Shown in pieces: positions 15,008-22,750 of a stretch of 64,000 nucleotides of DNA. The notes under the pieces were generated by a model, which worked only from the letters and a program-made list of their open reading frames with translations, ran no database searches and was not told the origin of the DNA. This stretch comes from Candidatus Minusculum obligatum. Lineage in GTDB: Bacteria > Patescibacteriota > Minisyncoccia > Phycocordibacterales > Phycocordibacteraceae. The stretch covers positions 23,337-87,336 of the forward strand of contig DCYT01000002.1 in assembly GCA_002331145.1 (NCBI GenBank). The letters run 5' to 3'. The translations under genes and the position numbers were made by a program. Position 1 is the first letter of the stretch, and each line of letters starts with the position of its first letter.

Positions 15008-15577
15008 ATGTATATTGCAGGCATAGATGAGGTTGGAAGAGGGCCACTTGCTGGTCCTGTTTCTATTGGAATTGTGTGGGTCAAAAAAGATCTTGATCTG
15101 AAGGAGAAATACCCAACCCTCAATGATTCAAAAAAGCTTTCTGAAAAGAAGCGAGAGGAAATATATAAATTAGCAAAGAAAGATTCTGATATTTCATATG
15201 TGGTTGTGAGTAATGCAGCAAAAGTTATAGATGAGAAGGGAATTGAGTTTGCAATTAGAGATGCAATTGCTAGGGGGTGTAAAAAACTTCCCGAAGATAC
15301 ATCTATATATTTAGATGGAAGACTTAAGGCTCCAGATAATTTTAAACAAGAGACTGTAGTTGGGGGAGATGCAAAAATTCCAGCAATTTCCTTAGCCTCT
15401 ATAATGGCGAAGGTAGAGCGGGATAGATATATGAAGAAAATATCAGAGGATTATCCTCAATATGGTTTTCATAAGCATAAAGGGTATGGAACAAAAGCTC
15501 ACATGGAAGCAATTGTTGATTGTGGGTTTTGTGAATTCCATAGGGAGAGTTTTTGTAGAAATTTGACCCAAGAATAG
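15008..15577 (+). CDS. rnhB: Ribonuclease HII
   Basis: N-terminus MYIAGIDEVGRGPLAGPVSIG with catalytic DE. 189 aa. The start codon immediately follows the pilin stop. Confidence 0.9.
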   Translation: MYIAGIDEVGRGPLAGPVSIGIVWVKKDLDLKEKYPTLNDSKKLSEKKREEIYKLAKKDSDISYVVVSNAAKVIDEKGIEFAIRDAIARGCKKLPEDTSIYLDGRLKAPDNFKQETVVGGDAKIPAISLASIMAKVERDRYMKKISEDYPQYGFHKHKGYGTKAHMEAIVDCGFCEFHRESFCRNLTQE

Positions 15578-15853: not shown

Positions 15854-16201
15854 ATGAGTTCACGAATGAAAATCACGCGAGGAAAGACGGGAAGCCGTCG
15901 AAGCCACCACGGCCTTACAGCGCCGCGTCTTTCGCATGACAAAGAGACTGACTCAACTCACAAGCGACACCATGTAGACCTTGAGACAGGAATGTACCGA
16001 GGAAAGCAGATTTTTGAACCTAAGGTGAAAACTCCAAAGGTAGAAGAAGTAGCAGAAGAGGTGGTAGAGAAAATTGAGGAGGTAGCAGAGGAAGTAAAAG
16101 AGGAGGTAAAGGAAATTGGAGAGGAGATTAAAGAAGATATTGAAGAGGTAATCGAAGCAGTTACAGAAGAGAAAGAAGAAAAGAAAGAGGAAGAGAAATA
16201 A
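15854..16201 (+). CDS. rpmF: Ribosomal protein bL32 that lacks the zinc-ribbon cysteines and carries a ~60-aa Glu/Lys-rich C-terminal extension
   Basis: RMKITRGKTGSRRSHHGLTAPRLS...HKRHHVDLETGMYRGKQI aligns to the bL32 core (RRSHxxLTAP ... HHV..CG.Y.G). It is followed by EEVAEEVVEKIEEVAEEVKEEVKEIGEEIKEDIEEV. Confidence 0.75.
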   Translation: MSSRMKITRGKTGSRRSHHGLTAPRLSHDKETDSTHKRHHVDLETGMYRGKQIFEPKVKTPKVEEVAEEVVEKIEEVAEEVKEEVKEIGEEIKEDIEEVIEAVTEEKEEKKEEEK

Positions 16202-16210
16202 ACAGAAAAC

Positions 16211-16238
16211 AAAAAGTCCCGCTTGTGCGGGACTTTTT
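16211..16238 (+). terminator. Intrinsic terminator after rpmF
   Basis: aaaaagtcccgc-ttgt-gcgggacttttt: a perfect 12-bp stem ending in T5. Confidence 0.7.
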
Positions 16239-16268
16239 GTATGCTACTTTTAACTCACGTTCTTTTAT

Positions 16269-17159
16269 ATGGCGAACCGACACCTTGCGCGATCAATTGT
16301 TCTTCAAACCCTCTTTGAGTGGGACTCTGTTGAAGGAGAAAAAGGAAATGCAAAAGAAATTTATGATCGAAACGTAGAGGAGTTTGCATCTGACAGTCGA
16401 GATGACAGGTTTATGCAGGAGCTTCTAGATGGAGTGCTCGCCAAACAAAAAGATATTGACCTCATTATAGTAAAAGCAGCACCTGATTGGCCGCTTGAAA
16501 AGATTTCAACCGTAGATCGGAATATTTTACGTATTGGACTATTTGAACTTCTCTTTGGAGATAGGGACCAAGTACCTGCAAAGGTGGCTATTAATGAAGC
16601 TATTGAATTAGCAAAGACATTTGGAGGAGATAGTAGCGGGCGATTTATAAATGGAGTACTTGGTGCTGTATATAAAGAAATTGGAGAGCCGGGGAAAAAT
16701 GACACAGGAAAAGGGAAGGGTGTAAAAGAGTTGCCAATTGAGAAGTATGGAGGAGCTGTTGTATATGCTGAGCATGAAGGACAGACATACCTTGCTCTTG
16801 TACATGATATTTTCGGACATTGGACATTGTCTAAGGGGCATATTCAAGATGATCCAAGCACGGAAGAGGGTGTAAAGAGAGTAATAAAGGAGGAATTGGA
16901 TCTTGATGTGGTGGTAGAAGAGCAGGTGGGAGAGAATGAATATGTAGCAAGTCATCCTGAAAAAGGGAAGACAAAGAAGATTGGAAAGTATCATTTAGCA
17001 AAAGCTGATTTTGCCCCGCTAACGCTAAAGAAATCGGGGGGATTAGATGATGCAAAGTGGTTTAAATTGCAGGATATCCTTGAGCTCAATTTCTATCGTG
17101 ATATGCTCCCTGTGGTAACTACTGCCGTGCAGAAGCTTGCCGCTAAGAAAGATTCATGA
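16269..17159 (+). CDS. nusB: Transcription antitermination factor NusB fused to a C-terminal Nudix hydrolase domain
   Basis: N-terminal NusB (RHLARSIVLQTLFEWD...NEAIELAKTFGGDSSGRFINGVLGAVYK, about 135 aa). Then a Nudix box GHIQDDPSTEEGVKRVIKEELDL matching Gx5Ex7REUxEExGU. 296 aa in total. The stop overlaps the rnc start (ATGA). Confidence 0.8.
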   Translation: MANRHLARSIVLQTLFEWDSVEGEKGNAKEIYDRNVEEFASDSRDDRFMQELLDGVLAKQKDIDLIIVKAAPDWPLEKISTVDRNILRIGLFELLFGDRDQVPAKVAINEAIELAKTFGGDSSGRFINGVLGAVYKEIGEPGKNDTGKGKGVKELPIEKYGGAVVYAEHEGQTYLALVHDIFGHWTLSKGHIQDDPSTEEGVKRVIKEELDLDVVVEEQVGENEYVASHPEKGKTKKIGKYHLAKADFAPLTLKKSGGLDDAKWFKLQDILELNFYRDMLPVVTTAVQKLAAKKDS

Positions 17160-17845
17160 GCACAATCAAAGATTTTCAAAATAAATTAGGAGTTACATTC
17201 TCTGATATTTCACTATTAGAAACGGCGCTAACACACCGGTCATTTTTGAATGAGAATAAATCAGACGGGCTTCAGCACAATGAACGTCTCGAATTTTTGG
17301 GAGACGCGGTACTTGAACTTGCCACAACAGACAGACTTTTTAAGAATTATCCAAAAGCGCCTGAGGGAGAGCTAACTGCCTATAGAGCAGCACTTGTGAA
17401 TACACTTTCTCTTGCTGCCATCTCAGAGGAGCTTGGGCTCAATGAATATATTCGACTTTCAAAGGGAGAGGCAAAAGATACAGGGCGCGCACGACAGTTT
17501 ATTCTTGCAAATGCAGTAGAGGCAATTATCGGAGCTCTATACTTAGATCAAGGGTATGAAGCAGCTGAGAAGTTTATCGCTACATATTTTTATCCAAAGC
17601 TTGATGAAGTTATTGAAAAGAGACTTTGGCAGGATGCCAAGAGTGCTTTTCAGGAGAAATCACAGGAGAGGGTTGGAATTACACCTCAGTACAACGTGAT
17701 AAGTGAAGAAGGACCAGATCATGACAAGACATTTACTGTTGCAGTAGTGCTTGGAGATGATGAAGTAGCACAAGGAACAGGACTTTCAAAACAGGAGGCA
17801 GAACAAAACGCAGCACGAGCTGGGCTTGATTCGAAGGGTTGGTAA
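17156..17845 (+). CDS. rnc: Ribonuclease III
   Basis: Signature ERLEFLGDAVLELATTDRLF and a C-terminal dsRBD. 229 aa. Confidence 0.9.
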   Translation: MSTIKDFQNKLGVTFSDISLLETALTHRSFLNENKSDGLQHNERLEFLGDAVLELATTDRLFKNYPKAPEGELTAYRAALVNTLSLAAISEELGLNEYIRLSKGEAKDTGRARQFILANAVEAIIGALYLDQGYEAAEKFIATYFYPKLDEVIEKRLWQDAKSAFQEKSQERVGITPQYNVISEEGPDHDKTFTVAVVLGDDEVAQGTGLSKQEAEQNAARAGLDSKGW

Positions 17846-17864
17846 AAAATGATACACTATCTCC

Positions 17865-20009
17865 ATGCAGCTAAAGGCGCTGGAGCTAACAGGATTTAAG
17901 TCGTTTGGTAAGAAAACGACTCTTTCTTTTACCAAGCCAATTACATCTATTGTGGGACCCAATGGGTCAGGAAAAAGTAATGTAGCAGAGGCATTTCGCT
18001 TTGCACTAGGTGAACAATCTATTAAAAGTCTTCGAGGGAAAAGAGGAGAGGATCTTATCTTCTCAGGAAGTGCGCAAACTCCTCGAAGTAACAAAGCGAG
18101 TGTAAAAGTAACGTTTGATAATTCAAATAAACTTTTTAATGTAGATTTTCCAGAGGTAACAATTGAACGAACAGTATTTCGAGATGGAGTAAATGAATAT
18201 TCTATAAATGGATCAAAGGTTCGCCTAAAAGATGTGCACGAACTTTTAGCCCATGCCAACATTGGTCAAACAGGACATCACATAATCTCTCAAGGAGAGG
18301 CAGATAGAATTCTGTCTTCAAATGCAAAAGAGCGAAGGAGTATGATCGAAGAAGCTCTTGGGCTTCGTGTATATAAATATAAAAAGGAAGAGGCACAGAA
18401 GAAGTTGGCAAAGACAGAAGAGAATATTGGAAATGTAGAGTCTCTACGAAAAGAAATTGCACCGCATCTGCGTTTCCTTAAGAAGCAGGTAGACAAGGTA
18501 GAGCGAGCAAAAGAACTCAAGGATGAGCTTGTTGGAGAGTATCAAGAGTATTTTGCACTTGAGGAAGCATGGCTCAAAGAAGAGGAGGGAAAGAATAAAG
18601 ACGCCCTCAATGAGCCAGAGAAACGTCTTGAAGAGATAGAGAAAGAAATCCAAGATCTTCCAGAAGATTCTCCGGTAGATACTTCAGATTTTGATACAAA
18701 GGTTCAAGAAAACGAATTTAAGCTCCGAGATCTTGAAGATGAGAGCCAGAATGCATTTCAGAAGCTATCTCGAATAGAAGGAGCTCTTGAGCTTACAAAA
18801 AAGAACCAAAGCACTGAAGAGAAGGTTTCAATTCATGCTGATACATTCTCTGAGTTTCGAAACAATGTACTTAAGGCAGGTGAAGAGGGAGAAAGAGCAG
18901 ATTCATTTGGAGACATGAGAAAAGCGTTTGATGGTCTTTTGAATGTTGTGCGCCCATTTGTAGATGCGTACAAAACAGCAGAAGTAGAGACTGAGGACAC
19001 AACAGAGCTTGAAGAAGAGCACGCACAGCTTAAAGAGGAGTATGAGAAAGCACGGTCTTCAGTACAGGAAATAAGGACAAGTATTTCAGAACTTCGCACA
19101 AAGAGAGAGGAAGTGCGAAATAAAACACAGGAGGGGCAGATAAAGCGTCTTGCACTTACTGCAGAGCAGGCAAAGCTCATTGCGCTCACCACATCACACA
19201 AAGAGCGTGCAGAGCGTCTTCGGGTTGAGCGTGAAGAGTTTGAACGCGAGCATAGAGAGGCTCTTGCGTTAATTGGAGAAGAGGCTGTTCGATATGAAAA
19301 GACTAAAGTAAGAGATGAGGCGCGAAGTGTACAGGAAGAGCGAAAGAGGAATATTCAGCGAATGAAGATTCGAGTCGAAGAGCTTGGCGGTGGTGGAGAG
19401 GAGGTTATGAAGGAGTTCTCTGAAGTGCAGCAAAGAGAAGAGTTCCTTGGAAATGAGGTGGAAGATTTGCAAACTTCGGCAGAGGCTCTTAAGGAACTTA
19501 TTGTAGAGCTCGAGAAAGAACTCACCTCTACATTCAATGAAGGTCTTGTGGCGATCAATACTGCCTTCAATGAATTTTTTGTAACAATGTTTGGTGGGGG
19601 ATCTGCACGTCTTGTTGCGGCAGATGCAAAAGACGAAGAAGAAGGAGTAGAAGATATTGGAATTGATGTGTCTGTATCAGTTCCTGGAAAGCGCGTGAAG
19701 GGACTCATGGCGCTTTCAGGTGGTGAGAGAGCCCTAACTTCAATTGCACTTATCTTTGCGATGAGTCAGGTGAACCCACCTCCTTTCCTTATTCTTGATG
19801 AGACGGACGCAGCCCTCGATGAAGCAAACAGTAAGCGTTATGCAGACATGATTGAGAATCTTGCAAAGCGATCACAGCTTATTCTTATCACACACAATAG
19901 AGAGACTATGAGTCGGGCGGGAGTACTCTACGGAGTAACTATGATGGGAGATGGAATTAGTAAACTCCTTTCTATTCAGTTTGAAGAGGCTGTGCAGGTT
20001 GCGAAGTAG
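17865..20009 (+). CDS. smc: SMC-family ATPase, unusually short (714 aa), with no recognisable hinge domain
   Basis: Walker A GPNGSGKSN, C-terminal signature LSGGERALTSIALIFAM and Walker B LILDETDAALD. The middle is an E/K/R-rich coiled coil of only about 400 aa. Confidence 0.8.
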   Translation: MQLKALELTGFKSFGKKTTLSFTKPITSIVGPNGSGKSNVAEAFRFALGEQSIKSLRGKRGEDLIFSGSAQTPRSNKASVKVTFDNSNKLFNVDFPEVTIERTVFRDGVNEYSINGSKVRLKDVHELLAHANIGQTGHHIISQGEADRILSSNAKERRSMIEEALGLRVYKYKKEEAQKKLAKTEENIGNVESLRKEIAPHLRFLKKQVDKVERAKELKDELVGEYQEYFALEEAWLKEEEGKNKDALNEPEKRLEEIEKEIQDLPEDSPVDTSDFDTKVQENEFKLRDLEDESQNAFQKLSRIEGALELTKKNQSTEEKVSIHADTFSEFRNNVLKAGEEGERADSFGDMRKAFDGLLNVVRPFVDAYKTAEVETEDTTELEEEHAQLKEEYEKARSSVQEIRTSISELRTKREEVRNKTQEGQIKRLALTAEQAKLIALTTSHKERAERLRVEREEFEREHREALALIGEEAVRYEKTKVRDEARSVQEERKRNIQRMKIRVEELGGGGEEVMKEFSEVQQREEFLGNEVEDLQTSAEALKELIVELEKELTSTFNEGLVAINTAFNEFFVTMFGGGSARLVAADAKDEEEGVEDIGIDVSVSVPGKRVKGLMALSGGERALTSIALIFAMSQVNPPPFLILDETDAALDEANSKRYADMIENLAKRSQLILITHNRETMSRAGVLYGVTMMGDGISKLLSIQFEEAVQVAK

Positions 20010-20251: not shown

Positions 20252-22189
20252 TTATTTCTTTTCTTCTGCAAGAGCAAAATCTAGAAGGCGATCAATAGTA
20301 TTTACTTTAATTAGTCGCACACGAACAGTGTCTCCAAGCTGATATGTCTTTCCTTTATTTTGTCCAACAAGTCGATACTTGCTCTCTTCGTATGAGTAGA
20401 AGTCATCTCCCATGCTTCGGATAGATACAAGTCCTTCAGATCGAGTATCTTGCTCCTCTACAAAGATTCCTCGCTCCATTACGCCTGTAATGATTGCATC
20501 AAATTCTTTCCCAACGAATTGCTCCATGAATTCAACTTGCTTTAGCTTGATTGAATCTCGCTCTGCTTCAGATGCTGAGATTTCTCTCTCAGTTGATCTA
20601 AGTGCGTCCTCATCAATACTTGCAATCTCAGCTTGTGAGAGCTTTCGTCCACTTGCAACTGCTTTTATCAACCTATGCGCTATAAGGTCTGGGTATCGCC
20701 TAATAGGAGAGGTGAAGTGAGAATAAAATTCAAACGCTAGTCCAAAGTGTCCAATATTTTTTGTGCTGTAGATAGCCTTGCTCATTGATCGAATAGCAGT
20801 TGTCTTTACAAGATATTCCTCCGGAGCTCCCTCGATTTCTTTAAATAATCTATTGAGATCTTTTCCAGTTATTCCTCCTTCTTTTTCTGTTGGAAGTTCG
20901 TGTCCAAGCACCTTCAGGAATTCTGCAAGGATTTTAATTTTTTCATCATTTGGTGTGTCGTGAATTCGGTAGATAAATGGTCGAGAACCACCACTGTCAT
21001 TTGCAATGTTAGTCATGTACTCAGACACCTTTTCATTTGCAAGAAGCATAAAGTCTTCAACAAGAAGGTTGGTATCTTGCCGCTCCTTTAGGTACACACG
21101 AACAGGAACACCGCTCTCATCTACTTCAATCTTCACCTCATCTCGATCAAAAGAAACAGCTCCTCGTTTTGTCCGCTTCAAGCGAAGCTTCTTTGCAAGA
21201 GTGTTAAGAGTATTTAGCTCCTCAAGGAACGGTCCATCTTGCTTATCAAGTACACCTTGAGCTTCTTCATATGTAAATCGTTTGTCTGAGTAGATTGCAG
21301 TTTCTCCATACCACTCATCATGAATATTTCCTTCTGCGTCGAGCACGAAGATTGCACTCATGGCGAGACGATCTTCCTCAGGCCGTAGTGAACAAAGATT
21401 TTCTGAAAGTACGTGTGGAAGCATGGGGATGGTTCGGTCTACAAGATAGACGCTTGTGGCACGTTTTCGTCCCTCATCATCAATTGCAGTTCCTGGAGTT
21501 ACAAAGTACGAAACGTCTGCAATATGAATCCCAATTTCGAACTTTCCATCATCAAGTTTTTTAACTGAGATGGCATCATCAAAATCTTTTGCGTCTACTG
21601 GGTCGATGGTGAAGGTTGTAATGCCTCGCATATCACGACGCCCTTCAATACCAGCTTTGAGAAGATCTGCTCCTTTTTCTTCAAGCTCTTCAGCTTCCTT
21701 TTGCACAGGAAGAGGGAAGTCAGCTTCAAATCCACCACGAAGAAGAAGTGCTCGCATCTCAACTTCATGATCTCCAACTGCTCCAAGCACTTCCATAATC
21801 TCTCCTTCAGGAAGGTTCTTTGCCTCATTCCATCCAGAGAAGTGAAGAATTGCTTTTACATTTTCTTTTTGTTCTCCCTTTGCAATAAAGAAGGGCACCT
21901 TTGTTCTTTTGTGATCTGCATAGAAAAGCCAATCTCCTTCCTCTTGTACGATTCGTCCCACGTACTTTTCTTGTCCGCGCTCAAGAATCTCTACCACCTT
22001 TGCAGCAGGCCGACCTCTCTCCATCCCAGCTTTTTCAAATCGCACCAAGTCCCCAGATAGGGCGGTACTCGTATCTCCAATTCGTACAACAAGTGACTCT
22101 TTGTCACCAAAATCAATAAAACCAACACCCTTGCGAGTGATGGAAATAATTCCCTGATCATCTTTTGGAGTTTTTTCGTCTGTTTTCAT
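20252..22189 (-). CDS. rnr: Ribonuclease R (RNB-family 3'-5' exoribonuclease with a C-terminal S1 domain)
   Basis: 645 aa. N-terminal cold-shock-like OB, an RNB catalytic domain (TIDPVDAKDFDDAISV, HFGLAFEFYSHFTSPIRRYPDLIAHR) and C-terminal S1 (GVMERGIFVE). Confidence 0.9.
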   Translation of the reverse strand: MKTDEKTPKDDQGIISITRKGVGFIDFGDKESLVVRIGDTSTALSGDLVRFEKAGMERGRPAAKVVEILERGQEKYVGRIVQEEGDWLFYADHKRTKVPFFIAKGEQKENVKAILHFSGWNEAKNLPEGEIMEVLGAVGDHEVEMRALLLRGGFEADFPLPVQKEAEELEEKGADLLKAGIEGRRDMRGITTFTIDPVDAKDFDDAISVKKLDDGKFEIGIHIADVSYFVTPGTAIDDEGRKRATSVYLVDRTIPMLPHVLSENLCSLRPEEDRLAMSAIFVLDAEGNIHDEWYGETAIYSDKRFTYEEAQGVLDKQDGPFLEELNTLNTLAKKLRLKRTKRGAVSFDRDEVKIEVDESGVPVRVYLKERQDTNLLVEDFMLLANEKVSEYMTNIANDSGGSRPFIYRIHDTPNDEKIKILAEFLKVLGHELPTEKEGGITGKDLNRLFKEIEGAPEEYLVKTTAIRSMSKAIYSTKNIGHFGLAFEFYSHFTSPIRRYPDLIAHRLIKAVASGRKLSQAEIASIDEDALRSTEREISASEAERDSIKLKQVEFMEQFVGKEFDAIITGVMERGIFVEEQDTRSEGLVSIRSMGDDFYSYEESKYRLVGQNKGKTYQLGDTVRVRLIKVNTIDRLLDFALAEEKK

Positions 22190-22211
22190 CCCATGACTAT
22201 AGCGTATTACC

Positions 22212-22240
22212 TTGACGAAATACAGCCCGCTTGCTATGTT
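22212..22240 (+). promoter_or_regulatory. Sigma-70-like promoter TTGACG-17-TATGTT, 6 nt upstream of the rpsP ATG (near-leaderless).
   Basis: TTGACG at 22212-22217, a 17-nt spacer, TATGTT at 22235-22240. The ATG is at 22247. The region is divergent from rnr. Confidence 0.35.
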
Positions 22241-22246
22241 TCCCGC

Positions 22247-22750
22247 ATGTTAGTAATTCGATATCAGAGGGTTGGACGTCGCAACGATGCGTCTTTTCGT
22301 ATTGTTGTAACAGAACATACAACTGGCCCAAAGAGTGGAAAGCATGTTGAGCAGCTTGGCTCATACAATCCAAAGACCAAGGCGGTAACTTTGAAGAAAG
22401 ACCGAATTGAGCATTGGATGAGTGTAGGAGCACAGACTTCAGATTCAGTACACAATCTTCTTGTAAAGGAAGGTGTGCTTGAAGGAGGAAAGATCAACGT
22501 ACTTCCAAAGAAATCTCCAATTGCAAAAGAAGTAGAAGAGGCAGAGGAGGCAGCACCAGCTGCAGAGGCTGCTCCTGAGGGAGAAGAAGCTCCTGCAGAG
22601 GAAGCTGTGGCAGAGGAAGCAGCTCCAGCTGAGGAGACTCCTGTAGTTGATGAGGCGCCCGCAGAAGAGGTGAAGGAGGAGGAAGCTCCTGCAGCAGAAG
22701 AGGCGCCAGAAGCACCAGCAGAAGAGGAAGAAAAGAAGGAGGACGCGTAA
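22247..22750 (+). CDS. rpsP: Ribosomal protein bS16 with an Ala/Glu/Pro-rich C-terminal extension
   Basis: MLVIRYQRVGRRNDASFRIVVTEHTTGPKSGKHVEQLGSYNP matches the bS16 core. The tail is EEAEEAAPAAEAAPEGEEAPAEEAVAEE. The ORF track start at 22193 is an upstream extension. Confidence 0.85.
   Translation: MLVIRYQRVGRRNDASFRIVVTEHTTGPKSGKHVEQLGSYNPKTKAVTLKKDRIEHWMSVGAQTSDSVHNLLVKEGVLEGGKINVLPKKSPIAKEVEEAEEAAPAAEAAPEGEEAPAEEAVAEEAAPAEETPVVDEAPAEEVKEEEAPAAEEAPEAPAEEEEKKEDA

Follow-up and report, generated by a model that had tools for sequence, protein, structure and literature searches.

A NusB–Nudix fusion with a degenerate Nudix box, conserved across Patescibacteria

The gene at positions 16269–17159 of the 64,000-nucleotide stretch of Candidatus Minusculum obligatum DNA analysed here (contig DCYT01000002.1; hereafter the window) raises the question of what a Nudix domain does once it is joined to the transcription antitermination factor NusB. 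A preliminary description of the locus had proposed an enzymatic answer, namely that a Nudix domain with a clear Nudix box removes nicotinamide adenine dinucleotide (NAD) caps or 5' pyrophosphates from RNA at antitermination complexes. Sequence searches, structure prediction and comparison of related genomes were utilized in order to evaluate this proposal. The two domains do form one protein, and this fusion is conserved in Patescibacteria/Paceibacteria. Its Nudix box is degenerate, and the reading that we lean towards is one in which the domain serves for binding rather than for hydrolysis.

The fusion gene (nusB::nudix, 16269..17159 on the + strand) is one uninterrupted open reading frame with an ATG start that encodes 296 amino acids, and Pfam scanning of the product finds both NusB and NUDIX. 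The NusB domain occupies residues 7–136 (16287..16676, +) as delimited by PF01029, TIGR01951 and Foldseek. It is followed by a flexible interdomain linker of roughly 20 residues rich in Lys, Gly and Pro (residues 139–157; 16683..16739, +), recognized by its low predicted local distance difference test (pLDDT) scores and poor conservation, and by a Nudix-fold domain (residues 157–295, Pfam NUDIX 164–279; 16737..17153, +) detected with PF00293, Foldseek and phmmer. An AlphaFold2 model of the full protein, built from 39 homologues (mean pLDDT 83, predicted template modelling score (pTM) 0.58), has two well-folded domains, of which the first is all-helical (residues 2–138) and the second alpha/beta (residues 157–295), with residues 140–152 of the linker disordered at pLDDT <50. 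Between diverse fusions the linker shows a mean pairwise identity of 18% and varies in length. Foldseek also returned Dcp2-like two-domain matches of ~260 columns; these were rejected on account of a root mean square deviation (rmsd) of 13–14 Å over the full length.

The N-terminal half is that of an ordinary NusB in sequence and predicted fold. PF01029 matches residues 7–136 at 120.3 bits against a gathering score of 23.1 (E 9.5e-35), and the score of 125.4 bits for the NCBIfam nusB equivalog model TIGR01951 exceeds its cutoff of 88.35. The seven helices modelled within residues 2–138 superpose on Aquifex NusB from the NusB–NusE–boxA complex (3r2c/3r2d) with a target-normalised template modelling (TM) score of 0.88 and an rmsd of 2.0, and on E. 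coli NusB (3d3c) with a TM score of 0.86 (both Foldseek). Alignment with the E. coli protein shows the core AINEAIELAK..FG...F(V/I)NGVL to be retained, with F16 at the position of Y18 and F126 at that of F122. E93, F126 and G129 do not vary among 41 diverse fusions, in which R4, R8, D83, L87 and R88 are conserved at ≥90%. The fusion protein shares with canonical NusB (E. coli; Aquifex aeolicus; 3d3b, 3r2c) the equivalog score, the all-helical fold, the N-terminal arginines R4 and R8 and the aromatic residue at the Y18 position; it differs in that the canonical protein is a stand-alone polypeptide of ~140 amino acids, to which the fusion adds the ~20-residue linker and a Nudix domain of ~140 residues, encoded by a gene between rpmF and rnc. 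Family models, fold and core residues thus agree with the earlier statement that the first ~135 amino acids are canonical NusB. RsmB family models match residues 7–139 as well. No second NusB gene and no other Nudix gene was detected in the 64-kb window by the only means used, family-built hidden Markov models and a regular expression for the box. On these similarities we treat the N-terminal domain as the organism's NusB orthologue and a bona fide NusB, and its family membership would imply binding to both S10 (NusE) and boxA RNA.

The union of the two domains extends far beyond the window. A search of a 5.8-billion-protein collection gave at least 8000 database proteins that match the fusion, the 120 best of which all carry both Pfam domains (lengths of 241–347 amino acids); full-length homologues with NusB and NUDIX measure 296–310 amino acids. 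A survey of related genomes, in which one genome per species was scanned, found a relative encoded in at least 504 species-level genomes, and all locus counts per 80 given here refer to the best 80 of these. Nearly all of the 80 are metagenome-assembled genomes labelled Patescibacteria, Paceibacteria or Parcubacteria-group, with Wolfe-, Kaiser-, Adler-, Nomura-, Yonath-, Lloyd- and Taylorbacteria among the lineages and many generic 'Saccharibacteria' labels; one Bacillota and one Azotimanducaceae label were taken as odd bin labels. The NusB and Nudix parts lie in a single reading frame at 80/80 loci, and the fusion is retained down to ~27% identity in the Nudix domain. More distant fusion clusters bear almost no names, apart from one Parcubacteria label and some 'NusB' labels. 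Fusion of the two domains in one gene, as first described from this locus alone, is accordingly a property of the lineage.

Apparent exceptions were inspected individually. The window is ~99% identical to the contig of L002, 'Patescibacteria group bacterium UBA3533', and an apparent 320-bp insertion in nusB of that contig was rejected as a run of N that reflects masking or a scaffold gap. One relative (L085, JACCDV010735530.1) is annotated as two genes because of a single in-frame TAA at 940–945; the linker is encoded in the same frame and a split gene was rejected. This TAA, located between the sequences for NusB and Nudix, coincides with the conserved Tyr135 codon (GAV*KELGEP) and could be a sequencing error, a pseudogene mutation or a recoded stop. 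A second case (L086) is a contig-end fragment in which the end of NusB is still encoded, and a third (L087, ERZ26869290 ctg138659) comes from an apparently palindromic, chimeric contig; neither was accepted as a separate gene. On the latter contig rnc and a NusB/Nudix-like fragment each occur in both orientations; this inverted duplication is probably an assembly chimera, and in its minus-strand copy NusB and the downstream open reading frames overlap and are apparently frameshifted. No genuine split or domain-loss variant was found among these three inspected cases. True stand-alone relatives of the Nudix domain (P0249 and P0174) have unrelated neighbourhoods, metabolic in one case and phage-like in the other, and nusB is absent from both.

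The C-terminal half was compared with known Nudix families. The Pfam NUDIX match to residues 164–279 of the full fusion protein, at 31.3 bits (E 2.3e-7), lies above the gathering score of 21.1. The top Foldseek match to the domain is the Nudix domain of the regulator NrtR with bound ADP-ribose (3gz8, E 3.4e-8). The Aquifex hydrolase aq_158 (3i7u), which acts on diadenosine tetraphosphate (Ap4A), superposes with a target-normalised TM score of 0.84–0.86 and an rmsd of 2.3–2.5; the next matches are the C. elegans Ap4A hydrolase, the mycobacterial diadenosine polyphosphatases MutT1/Rv2985, Chlamydia CT771 and Thermus Ndx1 (T. thermophilus, 1vc8, TM score 0.82). In a phmmer ranking of PDB sequences the C. 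elegans enzyme comes first (1kt9, E 1.4e-5), AraR, also a Nudix regulator without catalytic function, second and Ndx1 thereafter. The RNA-directed families are remote by the same measures: BdRppH and NudC rank 47 and 50 among the structural matches, and the RppH, YtkD and NudC models of NCBIfam match neither the full protein at E≤1 nor the C-terminal domain at E≤0.01. Membership of the RppH/NudC families was rejected on account of these missing model matches. Stand-alone Nudix relatives do show weak matches to the RppH, YtkD and NudC models, with MutT1 Nudix as the best model. Judged from sequence and from the predicted structure, the C-terminal domain has a genuine Nudix fold and derives from the Ap4A/Ap6A-hydrolase branch (NUDT2/Ndx1/MutT1-like). 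The same subfamily occurs in other architectures by Pfam: P0253 combines Sigma70_r4, the DnaA_C helix-turn-helix (HTH) and NUDIX, the 577-residue P0217 has a weak cold-shock domain match followed by NusB and then NUDIX, and P0149 has NusB and NUDIX with a Rho_N-like C-terminal tail. In one further cluster (P0258) the Nudix domain has diverged past Pfam detection.

The Nudix box itself is where the domain departs from its enzymatic relatives. The string quoted earlier as a clear Nudix box, GHIQDDPSTEEGVKRVIKEELDL, is present at residues 190–212 (16836..16904, +) by direct reading; measured against the consensus GX5EX7REUXEEXGU it is a degenerate box that fits 6 of the 9 defined positions (G1, R15, U17, E19, E20 and U23). 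E7 is replaced by P196, E16 (the Glu of 'RE') by V205 and G22 by D211, so that two of the four glutamates are absent, and R204, E208 and E209 are still present. The intact Nudix box expected of active Nudix hydrolases is hence not found at residues 190–212. With E7, R15, E16, E19 and E20 taken as the key five residues, none of the 121 closest sequences (≥70% identity) has all five, position 16 being V or I and position 7 being P, A or S. As the defect is common to 121/121 closest sequences it is a family trait and not a local error. Over the 80 nearest species genomes the full five are found in 20, E20 in 80 and R15 in 77, and the position of E16 reads E34/A23/V10/K6/S3/I2 and that of E7 E54/P16/A5. 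Among 40 diverse full-length fusions, each representing a 50%-identity cluster, only 5 have all five, with E16 in 7, E19 together with E20 in 18 and R15 in 25. The genuine stand-alone relatives (~140–150 amino acids) keep all five in 8/8. Four sequences with defective boxes were left out of that set: P0148, P0132 and P0248 proved to belong to fusions, of which they are parts, and P0127 (134 amino acids), whose match begins at model position 10, is presumably a fragment.

Conservation follows the opposite pattern from that of an active Nudix family, as the box varies more than the domain that contains it. Mean pairwise identity is 29% for the box against 32% for the whole Nudix domain in diverse fusions, and 75% against 82% in the close set. 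In that close set the Nudix domain is conserved as much as NusB (82% vs 80%), which means that the domain is not decaying. From these alignments both domains are seen to be under purifying selection, and the Nudix box to be degenerate here and to drift among the fusions without loss of the fold.

Residues outside the box have fared differently. G162, D180, W185, T186, K189, Y241, W264, L273 and Y276 are conserved at ≥90% in diverse fusions and are common to the stand-alone relatives, and D195, E224, E231, D260 and D261 are acidic residues invariant within the clade of the window protein. In a distant alignment with the C. elegans Ap4A hydrolase, K189 corresponds to K36, H184 to H31, K232/K234/K236 to K79/K81/K83, H229 to Y76, Y276 to Y121, V205 to E52 and E209 to E56. 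In the C. elegans enzyme K36, H31 and K83 are reported to contact the phosphates, and Y76 and Y121 to clamp the adenine. Of its catalytic Glu triad E52/E56/E103, the window protein has V205, the retained E209 and G258, the last with D260/D261 nearby. As far as such an alignment tells, residues at phosphate- and adenine-contacting positions are kept and the catalytic ones are relaxed. Compared with Ap4A/Ap6A hydrolases at large (1kt9/1ktg, 3i7u, 1vc8, human NUDT2, mycobacterial MutT1), which are the best sequence and structure matches, the C-terminal domain shares the W-T-x-x-K-G-H motif before the box, a lysine cluster (EKGKxKK vs AKGKPKS) and the C-terminal Tyr at the adenine clamp. It differs from them in the change of E52 to Val and of the GX5E Glu to Pro, in matching no equivalog model and in its fusion to NusB. 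As regards the Ap4A hydrolase subfamily, relatedness and the aligned binding residues were thus found, and the catalytic Glu triad was not.

Taken together, we lean, with some reservation, towards a genuine NusB with an attached Nudix module that has little or no activity and would bind a nucleoside polyphosphate and thereby tune or stabilise the antitermination–maturation complex. The NusB part would nucleate the ribosomal RNA (rRNA) antitermination complex via boxA RNA and S10. The Nudix domain, tethered by its flexible linker of ~20 residues, would serve as a binding module, be it a sensor, a 5'-end reader or a structural part. Its ligand might be a free signal of the Ap4A or nucleoside triphosphate (NTP) type, or else the tri- or tetraphosphate 5' end of the boxA-bearing leader in nascent pre-rRNA. 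Binding could then modulate or stabilise assembly of the antitermination/rRNA-maturation complex next to the action of RNase III.

Known systems offer analogies for such an arrangement, the pattern seen here being nearly identical to that of NrtR. The regulator NrtR has a randomly eroded Nudix signature with little or no hydrolase activity, retains ligand binding and carries a nucleic-acid-binding partner domain (PMC2330246). NrtR and AraR resemble the fusion, by analogy, in having a degenerate Nudix-fold domain covalently joined to a nucleic-acid-binding domain. In NrtR, however, the Nudix domain precedes a winged HTH domain, the targets are DNA operators and the origin is an ADP-ribose pyrophosphatase, whereas in the fusion NusB precedes an Ap4A-like Nudix domain, and RNA and S10 would be the partners. 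With no HTH domain and NusB as its N-terminal partner, the protein was not placed in the NrtR family and the likeness is one of analogy. A second parallel is SuhB, which joins NusB, NusE, NusA and NusG on rRNA operons in a NusB-dependent manner (PMC4807359, PMC6614797, PMC6614801) and which works with the Nus factors in a way not linked to its activity as a phosphatase (PMC4807359). Here, too, the rRNA antitermination complex has taken up an enzyme fold as a structural component; SuhB is a separate polypeptide, however, with the unrelated inositol monophosphatase fold. A bolder and more speculative version of the binding-module reading would make the protein a ligand-gated antitermination factor, the RNA-level counterpart of NrtR. 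In this version the pseudo-Nudix domain would respond to a nucleoside polyphosphate (an alarmone of the Ap4A type, an NTP or ADP-ribose) or bind the phosphorylated 5' end of nascent pre-rRNA, and would switch NusB–S10–boxA assembly and RNase III-coupled maturation according to nucleotide status; we regard it as possible at best.

Several points weigh against a binding module of this kind. The correspondence of residues with the C. elegans enzyme comes from an alignment at 22–24% identity. No defined interdomain interface is present in the AlphaFold2 model, given its pTM of 0.58 and disordered linker, and we infer the ligand of the Nudix domain, its effect on boxA and S10 binding and its protein contacts. 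R204, E208 and E209 could, together with the clade-invariant acidic residues, form an alternative metal site, so that residual or altered hydrolysis may occur. Retention of the five key residues in a quarter of the nearest species furthermore suggests that catalysis may be ancestral and still relevant in some lineages.

These last points lead to the alternative that is hardest to set aside, that of an active Nudix hydrolase delivered by NusB to nascent boxA transcripts, where it removes a 5' pyrophosphate or an NAD or dinucleoside tetraphosphate (Np4N) cap, or degrades a dinucleoside polyphosphate, and so couples antitermination to 5'-end processing. The Nudix fold and the Pfam NUDIX match are real, all of the 80 nearest species have E20, the window protein retains R204, E208 and E209 together with the clade-invariant acidic residues, and the five key residues occur in 20/80 nearby species and 5/40 diverse clusters. 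The genes for RNase III and RNase R are close by. NUDT2, a relative among the Ap4A hydrolases, acts on RNA 5' triphosphates and trims such RNA (PPP-RNA; PMC8616924). The 16S rRNA methyltransferase RsmB/Sun provides a precedent, being an NusB-like N-terminal RNA-binding domain linked to a second domain that it brings to rRNA, and RsmB models match the N-terminal domain here; RsmB/Sun differs in having an active C-terminal domain dependent on S-adenosylmethionine and an N-terminal domain that is a NusB paralogue, while that of the fusion passes the NusB equivalog threshold. Against such activity, two box glutamates are gone in the window protein and E16 is gone in 121/121 of the closest sequences. 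Replacement of the equivalent of E16 by Gln (E52Q in the C. elegans Ap4A hydrolase, E53Q in MutT) costs roughly 10^3- to 10^4.7-fold in kcat, with E52Q reportedly at the lower end (down ~10^3-fold). Catalytic constraint would not be expected to allow drift through E, A, V, K, S and I at that position, conservation is lower in the box than anywhere else in the domain, no RppH, YtkD or NudC model matches at E≤1, unlike in the weakly matching stand-alone relatives, and BdRppH and NudC are only distant structural matches. Removal of an NAD cap or 5' pyrophosphate, as had been proposed from the sequence of this locus, is accordingly poorly supported, and hydrolysis in general we consider doubtful.

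A fusion with no functional coupling, in which an Ap4A-type housekeeping Nudix gene joined nusB during genome streamlining and now has an unrelated role or slowly decays, seems less plausible still. Patescibacteria genomes are small and compact, the linker is flexible and poorly conserved with no predicted interface between the domains, and the catalytic residues are eroding, all of which such a scenario would accommodate. It is rendered unlikely by the persistence of the fusion, which spans at least 504 species genomes and Nudix identities as low as ~27%, by a Nudix domain as conserved as NusB in the close set, by the want of any genuine split or domain-loss variant among the inspected cases and by the near invariance of the subfamily-specific non-catalytic residues. 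That nusB and a Nudix gene appear joined only because an error in sequencing or assembly deleted a stop codon, as the two-gene annotation of L085 might suggest, can be dismissed for practical purposes, since the fusion is uninterrupted in thousands of independent assemblies, the L085 'split' comes down to one TAA at the Tyr135 codon with the linker still in frame, the N-run of L002 hides no insertion and the only apparent two-gene relatives are artefacts.

The surroundings of the gene are conserved too, the order being nearly always rnhB–rpmF–nusB::nudix–rnc–smc. Among the 80 loci rnc is found downstream in 79 and smc in 70, and rnhB upstream in 73 and rpmF in 66. In the window rnc (RNase III; 17156..17845, +; Pfam Ribonucleas_3_3, Ribonuclease_3 and dsrm) overlaps with its start the stop codon of the fusion gene, the overlap being ATGA at 17156–17159. 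The translational coupling to rnc that had been put forward is borne out by this overlap, but not as a general feature: the 4-nt overlap is confined to the closest relatives, and the gap between the two genes, as estimated from where the tblastn matches end, is 55 nt in the median, with values ≤0 in 10/79 loci. The RNA-processing context suggested by rnc immediately downstream is itself conserved. Mutations in rnc suppress Nus-factor defects (PMC4807359), which provides a rationale for the conserved adjacency of nusB and rnc. RNase HII is encoded upstream by rnhB (15008..15577, +; PF01351, E 1.4e-33) and an RNase R/II-type exoribonuclease with RNB, CSD2 and S1 domains just downstream on the opposite strand (20252–22189, −), so that RNase HII, RNase III and RNase R are all encoded within 7 kb of the fusion. 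No Rfam family at gathering threshold, tRNA or tmRNA was found across window positions 1–64000, which means that rRNA leader/boxA context is lacking within the window; rRNA leader and S10 are likewise absent from the 64 kb.

Immediately upstream, rpmF (15854..16201, +) encodes a ribosomal protein L32 of 115 amino acids with PF01783 over residues 6–55. Beyond the L32p match the product continues as a Glu/Lys-rich low-complexity C-terminal tail (EEVAEEVVEKIEEVAEEVKEEVKEIGEE...), the length of which varies in related loci. Between rpmF and the fusion gene a terminator scan found a GC-rich terminator-like hairpin (16209..16240, no strand assigned) with a 14-pair stem of which 7 are G-C pairs; it consists of a perfect GTCCCGC-TTGT-GCGGGAC with A5 and T5 flanks and ends ~28 nt 5' of the fusion ATG. 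It looks like a bidirectional terminator and is also kept in L002. No sigma-70-like promoter was detected between the hairpin and the fusion gene. Downstream of rnc lies a gene for a short SMC-like ATPase of 714 amino acids (17865..20009, +; PF02463 SMC_N, E 3.9e-64), in which the SMC_N model covers residues 3–699 with one half of the head at each end; an SMC hinge domain was not among the matches at E≤0.001. The short form is typical of the lineage, given that tblastn matches in related loci measure ~2.2 kb. Further on, the ribosomal protein S16 gene (22193–22750, +) encodes 185 amino acids, of which the Pfam S16 match takes up only residues 26–83, leaving a long extension.

No description of a NusB–Nudix fusion was found in the searchable literature and source databases name these proteins simply 'NusB', so the architecture appears to be undescribed. 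The Pfam NUDIX match in this protein should not be read as a hydrolase, so that a probable over-annotation is corrected. Housekeeping proteins acquire extra domains not infrequently. Few bacterial transcription factors match NusB in conservation and in constancy of architecture, and a lineage-wide variant that bears a nucleotide-binding pseudo-enzyme domain would be new for the Nus system. Besides NrtR and AraR, it would be a second example of the Nudix fold reused as a non-catalytic module on a nucleic-acid-binding protein. In Patescibacteria, which are uncultivated and have reduced genomes, the fusion would also give a testable handle on the regulation of rRNA synthesis. Bacteria of the candidate phyla radiation are expected to have few classical regulators; were NusB indeed ligand-gated, it would amount to growth-rate control of ribosome synthesis in these organisms.

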